From the NCBI GenBank assembly GCA_964356785.1, contig CAYHIS010000001.1:16998-80997 (forward strand): 64,000 bases of DNA, in the 5' to 3' direction. The translations under genes were made by a program, and so were the position numbers. Positions within the stretch are counted from its first letter, which is position 1; every line of letters starts with the position of its first letter. Below, one piece after another: positions 1 to 17,651 of the stretch. Source of the DNA: an uncultured Rickettsiales bacterium. Its GTDB lineage: Bacteria; Pseudomonadota; Alphaproteobacteria; Rickettsiales; CANDYO01. The notes below the pieces were generated by a model. It made no database searches, was not told where the DNA came from, and worked only from the letters and a program-made list of their open reading frames with translations.

Positions 1-454
1 AGTTTTTTACATCATCTGGAAAAAGATTAGGATTATTGGTCCAAATAAAATGCTGCCAACTAGTATCTAGTTCATTTAACTTAGCAAAATTTACTTTCAT
101 TTTTTCATAATAAATATCTGGCAGAACTGATGGATTTTCCTTTGGAGTAAAGTAAACATGATGGCTTATTAGAGCTATTGAAAATTTATTTTCTATATTC
201 TCAAGATTATCTAATTTATTTAAGCTTGATGAAGTGACTTCCTGATCAGCTTTTTCATAATTCAATCCACTAGATGAGAAAAAATTAGCAAAATCATCTG
301 AATTATATGGCCCATAGCATTTAGATCTAACTACTCCTAAATCAACCAATATAGAATGAAATTCTTCATCTCTAAAAAATTTCTTTATAGGCTTAATATT
401 TACTAAAAATGCTAAAAAGAATATAAAAAGTAAAATAGTCTTTTTATTTTTCAT
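1..454 (-). CDS. DXD-motif glycosyltransferase paralog (GT32/Och1-TcdB-like). Only the N-terminal ~151 codons are present; the gene runs off the window edge.
   Basis: Hand translation of the minus strand from ATG at 454..452 gives MKNKKTILLFIFFLAFLVNIKP...ISHHVYFTP...WQHFIWTNNPNLFPDDVKN. It is colinear with the N-termini of the two upstream paralogs (HH[IV]YF and WQHF[IL]W motifs). It is absent from the ORF track because it is truncated. Confidence 0.7.
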   Translation of the reverse strand, partial: MKNKKTILLFIFFLAFLVNIKPIKKFFRDEEFHSILVDLGVVRSKCYGPYNSDDFANFFSSSGLNYEKADQEVTSSSLNKLDNLENIENKFSIALISHHVYFTPKENPSVLPDIYYEKMKVNFAKLNELDTSWQHFIWTNNPNLFPDDVKN

Positions 455-1634
455 CTAAAAATCTCCAATAATATTTACGAGATGCTTTTTTCTCCACCCA
501 AGTAGCGCAAAACATATCAGCTCCTATTATTTCAAAACCATCACGATGCTTATAACTATAATATATATTATCTTTTCCCTCTGACGATCCATCTTTCATT
601 TCAACTTTAGAAGGATATTCTTTCATTAATTGAAAGAGTTTCTTATCATTCTCTTCAAATCCTTCTTTATTAATTTTGACATAAGTACAATCGCCATTCT
701 TATACCTTGCAAAATCAACATTCAGCACCATCCACGCTGGTAGAATCATATCATTATTTCCGTCTATATTATTTTTTGCAAAATATGAAATCGTAAGTAA
801 TGGCGGAGAGTTAAAATATAATTTATCATACATATTGCAAGGATATTTCATATAGTTAAGTAAATCTGTTCTCTCCAGCCTTGAAATAGCATCGTTAATG
901 ATGGGGTGATTTGGCTTTGAGACTAAAAATGAATTACCATAATAACTAAGTTTCCTTGGCAGCTCTCTTCCAGCAATAAAATCAAATCTTTTCATGAATT
1001 CCATCAAAGAATGAGTTTGATAAAGCTCATAATCCATATCTGTGTATATACCACCAAATTTTTGTAACAGCATTAACCGAAAAATATCTGATGCTTCCAT
1101 AAAATATCCCGTATTTTCATTTCCTTTTTTTATTGAGTCAGATAATTTAGAAAATAGAGGATGATCTTTTAATTCAGATATATTTTTTAGCTTCACTCCT
1201 TTAATTTGTTTAATATGTTCTGGGAAAATAGAATGATCATTAGACCATAAGAAATGTTGCCAATTATCACTTTCAGCATTTAACTTATCAAAATTAGCCT
1301 GCATTTTTTTAATATAAAAATCTAGTAAGGCTTTGGTATTATTATCTTTAACAAAATATATGTGATGAGTAATAGGAGGAATCTTTGAATCTTGGTCGGT
1401 TATATCAACTTTGGTTAATAGTTTCTTGAGAGCTTTTTCTACTATCTCCTTATCCATTTTTTCGTAATCAAACCCCTGTTGTTTAAAAATATCTACCAAA
1501 TCATTATTTGGTTTATAGCAAGGATGTATTAAATTTAAACCTACCATCACTTGATAGGCACTAGCATTAAATTTTGCTATAAAAACATATGCTGCACATA
1601 AAATTATAAATATAATTATTATTATTTTTTTCAT
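444..1634 (-). CDS. Membrane-anchored DXD glycosyltransferase (GT32/Och1-like sugar-binding region, also shared with TcdB-type toxins)
   Basis: The track ORF 444..1646 is TTG-extended. ATG at 1634 overlaps the upstream stop (ATGA). N-terminal anchor KKIIIIIFIILCAAYVFIA. Motifs IPPITHHIYF, WQHFLWSN and ASDIFRLMLLQKFGGIYTDMDYE. Confidence 0.8.
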   Translation of the reverse strand: MKKIIIIIFIILCAAYVFIAKFNASAYQVMVGLNLIHPCYKPNNDLVDIFKQQGFDYEKMDKEIVEKALKKLLTKVDITDQDSKIPPITHHIYFVKDNNTKALLDFYIKKMQANFDKLNAESDNWQHFLWSNDHSIFPEHIKQIKGVKLKNISELKDHPLFSKLSDSIKKGNENTGYFMEASDIFRLMLLQKFGGIYTDMDYELYQTHSLMEFMKRFDFIAGRELPRKLSYYGNSFLVSKPNHPIINDAISRLERTDLLNYMKYPCNMYDKLYFNSPPLLTISYFAKNNIDGNNDMILPAWMVLNVDFARYKNGDCTYVKINKEGFEENDKKLFQLMKEYPSKVEMKDGSSEGKDNIYYSYKHRDGFEIIGADMFCATWVEKKASRKYYWRFLDEK

Positions 1635-15766: not shown

Positions 15767-16711
15767 TTAAAAACATGGTTCATAAAGTTGATTTCTTAAC
15801 AACCATTCACTGATTTTCTTACTTTTAGAAAAAAACTTAAGCTCTTTATTAAAAGTTTGAGAAGTTAAACTTCTTTCATCGTGACGTCTAGTAACGCAAA
15901 AAGCCTTTGCATGCGCTGGAAATTCTTTGTAAACAGTAAAATTTTCTGGGTTTTGATAATATAATGCCGTTAAAATAGCTTGATCATGGCGATGATCTTT
16001 AAAATCAGGATACTCATTTTTGCTTGCAATATCTGTTAACAACTCCGGATCTTCACAATAATGCAGCCAATTTTTCACAAGTTTTCTTGTTTTTGCATTA
16101 TTCTTAATAAGCAGGAAACCACCTTGGAATTGAATTTTATCTCTAACTAACTCATTACTATTAAGCATCTTATCAATTATAGTTCTTTTCATATATATTC
16201 TATTTGTATGGCTATTAGGAAATAAAGTGAAATCATTGTTTTTAGTTTCTTCTAATAATTTATAAATTCCCTCTTTAATTAAAGCAGATCTATCTAGATA
16301 AAGCAAAACATCACCTTCATTCATCATATTTAATGTTTTGAGTATAATATATGGTTTCCATAACCAATATCCAGCACCTCTTGTTTGAGACAGAATAAAT
16401 TTATTTTTCTTATAAAATTCTGGGTCAATATGATGGGGTTGATAAGGTAATATTACATCAAAAACTCCAGCCATAGATGCACTCATATTTAAGTTGTTCT
16501 GATTCTGAATATATATTCCATGACTAGCATATGAAATTAACCAAAGCTTCTCCTTTTTATAAACTTTATAAGCATTTTTTATCGGATATGTAGATATATC
16601 CGTTGAATCTCGAAAGTCCTTTAAAGATAATATGCATAAATATAAGAATATTGATAAGAAAACTAATACTATTACAATAATATATAAAATATTTATTTTA
16701 AAATTTCTCAT
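15767..16711 (-). CDS. Uncharacterised membrane-anchored protein, probable GT-A-like sugar transferase ('GAGYWLWKPY' family)
   Basis: 314 aa. Anchor ILYIIVIVLVFLSIFLYLCIL. Motifs RGAGYWLWKPYIILKTL, LLYLDRSA (DxD-like position) and HRHDQAILT. Paralog of the partial ORF at 63197. The family assignment is inference from context only. Confidence 0.45.
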   Translation of the reverse strand: MRNFKINILYIIVIVLVFLSIFLYLCILSLKDFRDSTDISTYPIKNAYKVYKKEKLWLISYASHGIYIQNQNNLNMSASMAGVFDVILPYQPHHIDPEFYKKNKFILSQTRGAGYWLWKPYIILKTLNMMNEGDVLLYLDRSALIKEGIYKLLEETKNNDFTLFPNSHTNRIYMKRTIIDKMLNSNELVRDKIQFQGGFLLIKNNAKTRKLVKNWLHYCEDPELLTDIASKNEYPDFKDHRHDQAILTALYYQNPENFTVYKEFPAHAKAFCVTRRHDERSLTSQTFNKELKFFSKSKKISEWLLRNQLYEPCF

Positions 16712-17651
16712 CTATTTTCCTTTTTAATATTGGTGCTAATTTCTGTCTTAGTTTATTTTTCATATTTTCATAATCCATTTTATGATCGGTAATTATAATC
16801 TGCTCCCAAATTTCGCAATATTTCTTATCATTCTTATCTACTTCTATAATATAGTTAACTAAATCTTCTTCTGTTTCAAAGTCTTGTGCTGAAATAATAG
16901 CTTTTTTATTAATATCTTCTTGAGCTTTAATATCAGCATAATAAATAGGAACTGAGCCTGAGAAATAAGCATTAAAAACTTTTTCTGTTGTATAGCCAGG
17001 ATATGTTTGATTTTCATAAGCAATTACAAATTTACATTTTGATAAAAATTCCAACGTATCTTCAGAAGAAACGGTTTTACCTATGTTATTAAGATGCCCC
17101 CCACCACTTACTACGGGTTTATATAAAGAAAGTCTATGAAACAAACGATCACGAGCTGAAACTCCATCATAATATCGCTCTTTAGACCCATTCCCAACTA
17201 AAAAACAAGCAAAATGAGGATGGTCATTTTTACATTTCCCTCTTTTGAAAGAAGGTTCTAGGTTTTTATTTATATTATTATAAAAATAATATAAAGGAAT
17301 TCTTATATAATTAGACCATTCTTCATCGATAGGTGCAAAGCCTATAGACAAATCATAATTTTCTAATTTTGCAGGGTAAGCCTCGCCTATAAAGAAAATT
17401 TTAATTGCGTTATTATTATTGATCGGATCGTTTCCGAATACACTATTAATTATTAAATCATAATCGTCTTTGTTTGTAATTTTAATTACATATTTTTCCT
17501 CTAATATTTCTTTTATCATAGAAAAATCAGTAATTTTTGCGTTTTGATGTAAATTTTGTAACTTTACTTTAATAACTGGTCTAGAATGAGTTGAGTAAAT
17601 AAAAACACTAGAGCATATTATTACAAATACTGTAAAAATCTTAAAAATCAC
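16698..17651 (-). CDS. Alpha-1,3(/4)-fucosyltransferase (GT10) with N-terminal anchor
   Basis: 317 aa with a GTG start. KFVIAYENQTYPGYTTEKVFNAYFSGSVPIYYA matches the GT10 alpha-1,3-FucT motif (FENS..GY.TEK...A...G.VP.Y.G). FACFLVGNG...R..L...LSLYKPVVSGG matches the preceding conserved block. Confidence 0.8.
   Translation of the reverse strand: MIFKIFTVFVIICSSVFIYSTHSRPVIKVKLQNLHQNAKITDFSMIKEILEEKYVIKITNKDDYDLIINSVFGNDPINNNNAIKIFFIGEAYPAKLENYDLSIGFAPIDEEWSNYIRIPLYYFYNNINKNLEPSFKRGKCKNDHPHFACFLVGNGSKERYYDGVSARDRLFHRLSLYKPVVSGGGHLNNIGKTVSSEDTLEFLSKCKFVIAYENQTYPGYTTEKVFNAYFSGSVPIYYADIKAQEDINKKAIISAQDFETEEDLVNYIIEVDKNDKKYCEIWEQIIITDHKMDYENMKNKLRQKLAPILKRKIDEKF

Follow-up and report, generated by a model that had tools for sequence, protein, structure and literature searches.

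Leloir glycosyltransferases (GTs), whose nucleotide-sugar donors are made in the cytoplasm, are held at membranes by a single N-terminal helix in several described systems. The type II enzymes of the Golgi (FUT3-9 of CAZy family GT10, FUT1/2 of GT11, and Och1 and A4GALT of GT32) consist of a short basic N-terminal tail, one helix, sometimes a linker, and the catalytic domain; in WaaA/KdtA and LpxK, and in Alg1, Alg2, Alg11 and Alg14 on the cytosolic face of the endoplasmic reticulum, one such helix tethers a nucleotide-sugar- or nucleotide-dependent enzyme beside a lipid-linked acceptor. The GT10 alpha-1,3/4-fucosyltransferase FucT/FutA of Helicobacter pylori has no N-terminal helix; its membrane association is mediated by heptad repeats and amphipathic helices at the C-terminus. 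Described here are ten GT-like genes, each encoding an N-terminal hydrophobic anchor, from an uncultured Rickettsiales bacterium (assembly GCA_964356785.1, contig CAYHIS010000001.1); they lie within positions 16,998 to 80,997 of the contig's forward strand, a stretch of 64,000 nucleotides termed here the window, with a GC content of about 31%.

The analysis directly establishes the anchors themselves, the family assignments, the intactness of catalytic motifs, a bacterial affinity, and the distribution of the anchor across whole families. As for substrate, product and orientation, which we infer, the explanation that is modestly favoured overall is a bacterial, lineage-typical toolkit of membrane-tethered, cytoplasm-facing Leloir GTs, each retaining an uncleaved N-terminal hydrophobic helix. 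These enzymes would build an envelope glycan stepwise (a lipopolysaccharide (LPS) outer core, an O-antigen or a capsule-like polymer) on an acceptor that would be lipid-linked at the inner membrane, where the helix would hold each enzyme, much as WaaA, LpxK or the Alg enzymes work while tethered and facing the cytoplasm. Because GT10, GT11, GT2 and GT8-like enzymes occur together, the glycan might be fucosylated and Lewis/H-like. Each gene adds to a GT family already described, within a system of a familiar kind. More generally, six unrelated families (GT2, GT10, GT11, GT32, GT1-like and a GT-A family without a Pfam model) have all come to be tethered to the membrane in lineages of the Rickettsiales, the Holosporales type and the Chlamydiales, and the relatives of these enzymes in free-living bacteria and viruses are soluble; this points to a common, unexplained selective pressure.

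The ten open reading frames (ORFs) all exist and translate as quoted by a first-pass annotation, made from the sequence alone, and both the translations and a measurement of the N-termini bear out its claim that every one of them, including the one at 63197, starts with a hydrophobic anchor. They are listed here with the anchor codons given as nucleotide positions of the window:

GT32a, 2..454, minus strand: the N-terminal 151 codons of a protein cut by the window edge (full length 419 amino acids (aa), P0224); anchor MKNKK + TILLFIFFLAFLV, codons ~401-439.
GT32b, 444..1634, minus strand: 396 aa, PF04488, with a DMDYE (DXD) motif; anchor MKK + IIIIIFIILCAAYVFIA, codons ~1575-1625.
GT32c, 1631..2743, minus strand: 370 aa, PF04488; anchor MKRK + LFFILFIICVGITF (14 residues), codons ~2690-2731.
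GT1-like GT-B protein, 2745..3947, minus strand: 400 aa, PF13524, zero cysteines; anchor MKIK + SFIVLSLSLLIIFFSY, codons ~3888-3935.
GT11 (alpha-1,2-fucosyltransferase family), 12590..13678, plus strand: 362 aa, motifs HVRRTD and SSFSWWAAYL; core of the anchor FFFLLMIFIISVLIYI, codons ~12620-12667.
GT2a, 13681..14676, plus strand: 331 aa, PF00535; anchor MKIRN + LLIILSILATIISLYYL, codons ~13696-13746, then a linker of ~65 residues.
GT2b, 14722..15714, plus strand: 330 aa, PF00535; anchor codons ~14737-14787.
unkA, 15767..16711, minus strand: 314 aa, predicted GT-A fold (GT8-like) without a Pfam match, with GYWLWKP and HRHDQ motifs; anchor core of 23 residues, codons ~16622-16690, followed by the juxtamembrane motif STDISTYP.
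GT10, 16698..17651, minus strand: 317 aa, GTG start, assigned to the bacterial FucT type (PF18025 + PF00852), Y-x-T-E-K intact; anchor IFTVFVIICSSVFIYST, codons ~17589-17639.
unkB, 63197..64000, plus strand: cut by the window end (full length 306 aa, P0094); anchor MFKIK + WIYVSLVLLVCLLIL, codons ~63212-63256.

No GT-like gene beyond these ten occurs in the window. One locus, on the minus strand, consists of tandem GT32-type paralogues and the GT1-like enzyme; a second comprises GT11, two GT2 copies (GT2b being a tandem duplicate of GT2a, with 80% identity), the GT8-like unkA and GT10; unkB, a paralogue of unkA (58% identity), stands alone near the window end. Immediately past the window start comes a fourth GT32 paralogue, of 413 aa. 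Past that paralogue, upstream of window position 1 (L004, 9511-18289), are Hda/DnaA-like, Bro-N/ANT, HTH_17, NB-ARC/TPR STAND NTPase and PRiA4_ORF3 genes, an island that adjoins the GT32 array and looks mobile or defence-like.

Families were assigned from Pfam matches at the gathering score, supplemented by NCBIfam and PHROGs, and folds from AlphaFold2 (AF2) models compared with the PDB using Foldseek. Above-gathering Pfam matches were obtained for eight of the ten proteins: PF04488 for two GT32 proteins and the third, cut copy, PF13524, PF01531, PF00535 twice, and PF00852 with PF18025; NCBIfam and PHROGs returned nothing for GT10, GT32, the GT1-like protein or unkA. GT10 scores 63.1 bits against PF00852 (cut-off 23.9) and 49.7 bits against the FucT_N model PF18025 (cut-off 27.2), by which it is assigned to the bacterial FucT type of CAZy GT10; its residues E90, R167, E213, Y220, T222, E223 and K224, which we take to be the donor-binding and catalytic positions of the H. 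pylori enzyme, are invariant or nearly so in the family alignment (A3). GT11 scores 90 bits against PF01531 (cut-off 23.9), with H209, R211, D214, S289, W293 and W294 conserved (alignment A4); the GT32 proteins score 45.5 and 33.1 bits against PF04488 (cut-off 23), with D199 and D201 invariant and a GT-A fold in the model; and the GT2 proteins score 57.9 and 53.6 bits against PF00535 (cut-off 23.3). Catalytic motifs are conserved throughout the GT10, GT11, GT32 and unkA alignments. Neither unkA nor unkB matches any Pfam, NCBIfam or PHROG model, the GT8, GT34 and GT77 profiles PF01501, PF05637 and PF03407 included; some homologues of this family do have precomputed PF05637, PF03407 or PF01501 matches. 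The AF2 model of unkA (mean predicted local distance difference test score, pLDDT, 92.7) finds XXYLT1, glycogenin, LgtC and PBCV-1 A64R as its best Foldseek matches (E ~1e-5, TM-score ~0.4), D140 and H240-R-H-D-Q are conserved across the family, and GYWLWKP and HRHDQ are invariant; on the strength of the model, unkA and unkB are predicted to be GT-A fold glycosyltransferases.

The layout that had been described (a short tail, a hydrophobic helix, then the catalytic domain) is confirmed, and the anchors are real. The tails comprise 3-10 residues, of which 1-3 are K/R and none D/E; the hydrophobic cores, defined as free of charged, N/Q/H or proline residues, span 13-23 residues (the shortest being those of GT32a, 13, and GT32c, 14), with Kyte-Doolittle means over 17 residues of 2.0-3.3; and the AF2 models place a helix there (spanning residues 2-37 of unkA and 2-21 of GT32b). 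An N-terminal hydrophobic segment is present in 10/10 GTs versus 18/44 other genes of the window (Fisher p=8e-4).

The closest homologues of the GT10, GT11, GT32 and unkA families are 40-70% identical to the window proteins, mostly carry the same anchor, and, where named, come from Rickettsiales, Rickettsia, Midichloriaceae, Holosporaceae, Paracaedibacteraceae and Chlamydiales metagenome-assembled genomes (MAGs) and genomes, in genomic surroundings that are plainly bacterial; identical proteins also occur on contigs of Hainich groundwater assemblies. Anchors are found in 57/83 GT10 homologues (those named being Rickettsia), in 91/99 GT32 homologues (one named as a Rickettsiales MAG), and in 91 of the best 120 unkA homologues, whose named members include one MAG of the Chlamydiales and another bearing the label Janthinobacterium lividum. 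For GT11, the anchor is present in 28 of the 40 nearest cluster representatives versus 14 of the next 110, and the more distant relatives are 290-aa enzymes of the ordinary kind, starting at query residue 37. Among the nearest relatives (P0307-P0340) many are, at ~530-740 aa, longer than the GT11 domain, and one of 855 aa (P0317) is apparently an unanchored GT10-GT11 fusion. Anchored homologues of the GT1-like protein adjoin unkB orthologues in four Rickettsiales MAGs (L088-L091).

When the unkA alignment was scanned against GTDB species-representative genomes, Rickettsiales MAGs ranked first (55-57% identity), one of them a 1.55-Mb chromosome that also encodes two anchored GT32 homologues; next came matches, all anchored, from Midichloriaceae, Rickettsiaceae, Megaera, Arcanobacter, Holosporaceae, Paracaedibacteraceae, Chlamydiales and 'Pelagibacter'-labelled MAGs, while short, unanchored forms were found in Desulfobacterota, Roseomonas, Flavobacterium, cyanobacteria and others. 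Anchored members of the unkA family (window 15767-16711 and 63197-64000; P0085-P0127) share the juxtamembrane motif (S/T)TDISLYPVK right after the helix, which is not present in unanchored viral and free-living forms. By this distribution, the anchor appears as a trait of whole subclades within each GT family, mainly in Rickettsiales, Holosporales-type alphaproteobacteria and Chlamydiales, with unanchored versions of the same catalytic domains in free-living bacteria and viruses. The anchor was therefore added, it seems, to bacterial-type domains inside bacteria, and not imported with a Golgi enzyme.

The genomic context is consistent with envelope-glycan synthesis. The window's housekeeping genes are alphaproteobacterial (nuoG-N, pntAB, gidAB-parAB, rseP-bamA-skp, kdsD and a gene for an LptC/LptA protein), and kdsD together with the LptC/LptA protein indicates that the organism makes LPS. 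The latter is encoded by a single 329-aa ORF (48884-49873, plus strand) with LptC-like (PF06835) and LptA/OstA (PF03968) domains behind an N-terminal anchor, and looks like a fused LptC-LptA. Genes of the unkA family adjoin GT10 genes in five records (L104, L114, L158, L164 and L166), GT11 genes in three (L102, L112 and L118) and the GT1-like gene in the four named above (L088-L091); this adjacency recurs in anchored and unanchored versions, which argues that the enzymes work together. In a Rickettsia sp. record (OZ032152.1; L319, 983220-1000218) and a metagenome scaffold (L002), an anchored GT10 homologue lies within an rmlA-rmlB-fdtA-degT cluster that in both records also contains a GT61 and an acetyltransferase; only the Rickettsia record has a DUF6492 gene after GT10, and L002 contains an ABC-2 Wzm/Wzt pair. 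This cluster is an O-antigen-type locus. Since GT10 homologues adjoin genes for a dTDP-3-amino-6-deoxyhexose, the donor of GT10 could differ from GDP-fucose. The 'GT10' of this clade may act in an O-antigen pathway based on dTDP-3-amino-3,6-dideoxyhexose, either instead of using GDP-fucose or in addition to it.

That the hydrophobic N-termini are merely ORFs wrongly extended in DNA that is rich in AT, and with it in TTT, ATT and TTA codons, is extremely improbable, even though the genome has ~31% GC and one public annotation, that of GT11 (P0306, 333 aa), begins at codon 30 (TTG) and so leaves the anchor out. The public annotations of the other genes include it; no other in-frame start exists within the first 28 codons of seven of the ten ORFs; GGAG-like sites, resembling Shine-Dalgarno sequences, precede several of them; and the segment is kept in homologues from genomes of 30-53% GC. 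For GT11 itself the long form, with ATG at 12590, is favoured because its homologues align from query residues 2-16. A start-codon artefact was accordingly rejected on the start-codon survey and the upstream sites. Cleavable Sec signals or lipoprotein signals for the ten were likewise rejected: no lipobox or A-x-A-type site is visible by eye, and K/R residues occur 1-4 positions after the core. The first-pass annotation went further, proposing a eukaryotic host or a giant virus as the source of the genes and their anchors, an origin that is not supported by the sequence comparisons and that we consider very improbable. There are grounds for raising it: giant-virus MAG contigs encode full-length GT10 relatives, 19/50 of them anchored, as well as weak GT32 relatives, some anchored; the unkA family is abundant on viral contigs (471 matches); and the overall GC of the GT genes, at 28.4%, is lower than the 32.6% of other genes. 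Viral relatives, however, are less similar than the anchored bacterial ones (32-44% identity for unkA, 25-40% for GT11, 27-33% for GT10, many of these on giant-virus MAG contigs, and 22-34% for the weak, partial GT32 matches), and anchors occur in 0/82 viral unkA ORFs and 0/14 full viral GT11 ORFs. In a neighbour-joining tree of the GT10 catalytic region, the window protein groups with anchored bacterial (Rickettsia-containing) sequences, unanchored bacterial proteins come next, and the anchored viral proteins form a clade of their own; all that the tree, computed with neither bootstrap nor eukaryotic outgroup, can show is that the anchored clade of bacteria does not fall within the viral sequences. 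No eukaryote-named protein is among the matches of three homologue searches (GT10, unkA and GT32). GT10 has the bacterial FucT_N domain and is nearer to H. pylori FucT (residues 15-284, 3e-23) than to human FUT9 (residues 189-281 only, 9e-13). Nor do the codons look foreign: GC at third codon positions is 0.200 in the GT genes versus 0.217 in core genes (p=0.10), so the lower overall GC reflects amino-acid composition and not foreign codon usage. Hence, with the closest homologues of all four families (GT10, GT11, GT32 and unkA) being bacterial, set in bacterial contexts and bearing the same anchors, the result is a useful negative: because such anchors are common to related bacteria, a protein layout of 'eukaryote-like' appearance, when met in a symbiont-type genome rich in AT, is no evidence of eukaryotic or viral transfer.

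The question of which side of the membrane the catalytic domains occupy is more finely balanced. On balance they probably face the cytoplasm, a view favoured by the operon context, with cytoplasmic dTDP-sugar genes and Wzm/Wzt, and by the K/R residues directly after the core. In the Rickettsia record, the sugar-nucleotide enzymes lack signals and N-terminal hydrophobic segments are present in 3/3 GT-like proteins; provided that one of the operon's own GTs consumes its dTDP-sugar, at least one anchored GT uses a cytoplasmic donor. Among the ten window GTs, the first K/R comes 1-4 residues past the core and the 12 residues following it contain a mean of 2.9 K/R, as opposed to 4-18 residues and a mean of 1.2 for six exported or periplasm-facing proteins of the window; and the K+R count of the C-terminal flank exceeds that of the N-terminal tail in 46/59 GT10 and 63/93 GT32 family members. 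Several observations weigh against the envelope-glycan explanation in this cytoplasm-facing form. All ten tails are purely basic, and a basic tail classically keeps the N-terminus in the cytoplasm, which would place the domain outside; net charge is higher on the N-terminal than on the C-terminal flank in 80/98 unkA and 16/26 GT11 relatives, so that positive-inside counts lean opposite ways in different families; N-termini resembling cleavable signals are seen in homologues P0039, P0158 and P0146 and in ORFs of L101, L320 and L321; four cysteines (C140, C149, C206 and C279) are each ~98% conserved in the GT10 clade, and of four in the GT32 clade (C39, C266, C316 and C376) two reach ~98% conservation and the other two 86-89%, and these could form disulfides; genes for a flippase, polymerase, ligase, Wzm/Wzt and GDP-fucose synthesis are absent from the window and its 10-kb extensions, so that the glycan pathway itself is not demonstrated; and GT32b is structurally nearest to host-directed toxin GTs.

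An alternative is true type II enzymes, with a cytoplasmic N-terminus and a periplasmic catalytic domain, that would form a Golgi-like anchored line outside the cytoplasm and tailor LPS or envelope proteins after export, fed by nucleotide sugars from the host cytosol. This alternative, which corresponds to the export or unusual orientation that the first-pass annotation gave as its second possibility, is less likely than the cytoplasm-facing one. Besides the tails, flank charges and cysteine quartets, it draws on the homologues of three families whose N-termini are like canonical signal peptides followed by acidic residues, on the organism of L321, in which even UDP-glucose dehydrogenase has such an N-terminus, and on the concentration of anchored forms in obligately intracellular lineages. 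Arrays of GT-like proteins are encoded by L320 (ERZ25039544 contig_38959, 294 kb), L321 (ERZ25039484 contig_86581, 76 kb) and L101 (uncultured bacterium MFD01188.bin.1.19); they comprise RXYLT1/GT47-like, GT2, GT14 'Branch', CAP59-like and unkA-like proteins, along with ADP-ribosylglycohydrolases and UDP-glucose 6-dehydrogenase, all beginning with canonical signal-peptide-like N-termini and then acidic residues. These arrays look like exported glycan machinery of an organism of ~39% GC, which nearby RRXRR-HNH and glyoxalase genes suggest to be a bacterium. Precedents for extracytoplasmic Leloir GTs that act on host nucleotide sugars also exist: Neisseria Lst is described, in a passage citing Shell et al. 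2002, as an outer-membrane enzyme using host CMP-NANA (PMC4324315), and Chlamydia GlgA acts in the inclusion lumen on host UDP-glucose (PMC4829429). Against type II anchors are the K/R residues directly behind the core in 9/10 GTs, unlike the genome's own exported proteins; the operons that combine homologues with cytoplasmic dTDP-sugar enzymes and Wzm/Wzt; the presence of anchored forms in MAGs whose labels, Pelagibacter or Puniceispirillum, would if correct make them free-living; and the retention of the GT10 pair C140/C279 in an unanchored Roseomonas homologue, while conservation of C149/C206 could be mere co-variation with phylogeny. Moreover, we know of no precedent for periplasmic GT2, GT10 or GT11 enzymes. 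It is rather doubtful that a periplasmic, Golgi-like glycosylation line running on host-cytosol nucleotide sugars operates in Rickettsiales-type bacteria and in the lineage of L101, L320 and L321; were it real, it would constitute a compartment and logic of Leloir glycosylation undescribed in bacteria beyond single enzymes such as Lst, and a host-fuelled process of this kind, outside the cytoplasm of intracellular bacteria, would have implications for the way in which such bacteria make, or imitate, fucosylated surface glycans like those of the host. Less probable again, and quite improbable in absolute terms, is that part of the set, chiefly the GT32 array, consists of host-directed protein GTs (effectors or toxins) instead of envelope-glycan enzymes. 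The AF2 model of GT32b (pLDDT 90.9) does find YeGT, PaTox, SetA, LtpM, Lgt1 and TcdA/B as its best Foldseek matches, with fungal Och1 behind them, and GT32b matches PF12919 (TcdA_TcdB) weakly, over part of the model only (29.3 bits, cut-off 23.6), GT32c falling under the cut-off; the array adjoins the mobile or defence-like genes noted above; and another contig (L318) carries the same GT32 and GT10 domains unanchored, fused to ankyrin repeats or to a soluble N-terminal extension. The TM-scores, though, are merely 0.35-0.5, so that the match reflects the shared GT-A core only, and neither a delivery domain nor a secretion-system gene is found nearby. Signal recognition particle targeting sends very hydrophobic N-terminal helices to the bacterium's own inner membrane; because the helices of the window's anchored GT32 copies should be captured by that insertion machinery, an effector role for them, while possible, is rated low.

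In contig L318 (JGI 3300075486 Ga0633382_0000062, 47 kb), the close, unanchored GT10 relative P0015 (51% identity) has a soluble N-terminal extension of ~85 aa and sits in a row, flanked by lepA, of proteins with ankyrin repeats fused to GT32, to Methyltransf_21 and to DUF3431, together with a GT25. These proteins look like effector-style versions of the same catalytic domains. Elsewhere in the window, a 108-aa ORF (8686-9012, minus strand) contains the radical-SAM motif of biotin synthase (GGCPENCSYC) and resembles what is left of a truncated bioB; a 510-aa protein (19363-20895, minus strand), made of two similar halves with two Pfam DnaJ-domain matches and no other recognisable domain, could be a secreted or host-interaction protein; and the prfB ORF (53015-54122, plus strand; 224 aa, PCRF/RF-1 domains), whose N-terminal part is not in this frame, has a layout consistent with the usual programmed +1 frameshift of RF2.

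How, then, do the tethered enzymes compare with the systems described at the outset? H. pylori FucT (PDB 2nzw, 5zoi) is the best solved match to the window GT10, with which it shares the two-domain FucT_N + GT10 organisation, the Y-x-T-E-K GDP-fucose motif and the N-domain Glu. It differs in two respects: it lacks the N-terminal helix, as the first-pass annotation had stated (the alignment with 2nzw opens with its residue 14 opposite query residue 15), and it appears to have none of the four near-invariant cysteines of the window GT10 clade. The toxin and effector GTs YeGT, PaTox, SetA, LtpM and Lgt1 of Legionella, and TcdA/B provide the nearest structures to the GT32 paralogues (Foldseek E 4e-11 to 1e-3, with a shared DXD GT-A core), although similarity at the sequence level is marginal (E 1e-3 to 0.08); unlike the window GT32s, they have delivery or targeting domains and no N-terminal membrane helix. 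Neisseria Lst and the Pasteurella/Photobacterium sialyltransferases are Leloir GTs of host-associated bacteria with export-type (signal or lipoprotein) N-termini; they are, however, single enzymes of families GT52 and GT80, as opposed to a ten-gene set of other families.

With the type II GTs of the Golgi, the window proteins have in common both CAZy families and the order of basic tail, helix, occasional linker and catalytic domain. Unlike those enzymes, they are of bacterial affinity (FUT9 matches the C-terminal motif region only, and Och1 is a weaker structural match to GT32b than are the bacterial toxin GTs), and their orientation is probably the opposite one. In WaaA/KdtA, LpxK and the Alg enzymes, the tethering helix follows a neutral or acidic tail; the window tails are always basic, and there is no sequence relationship with any of these enzymes, with which the window GTs would share the way in which a single helix keeps a cytoplasm-facing enzyme beside its lipid-linked acceptor.

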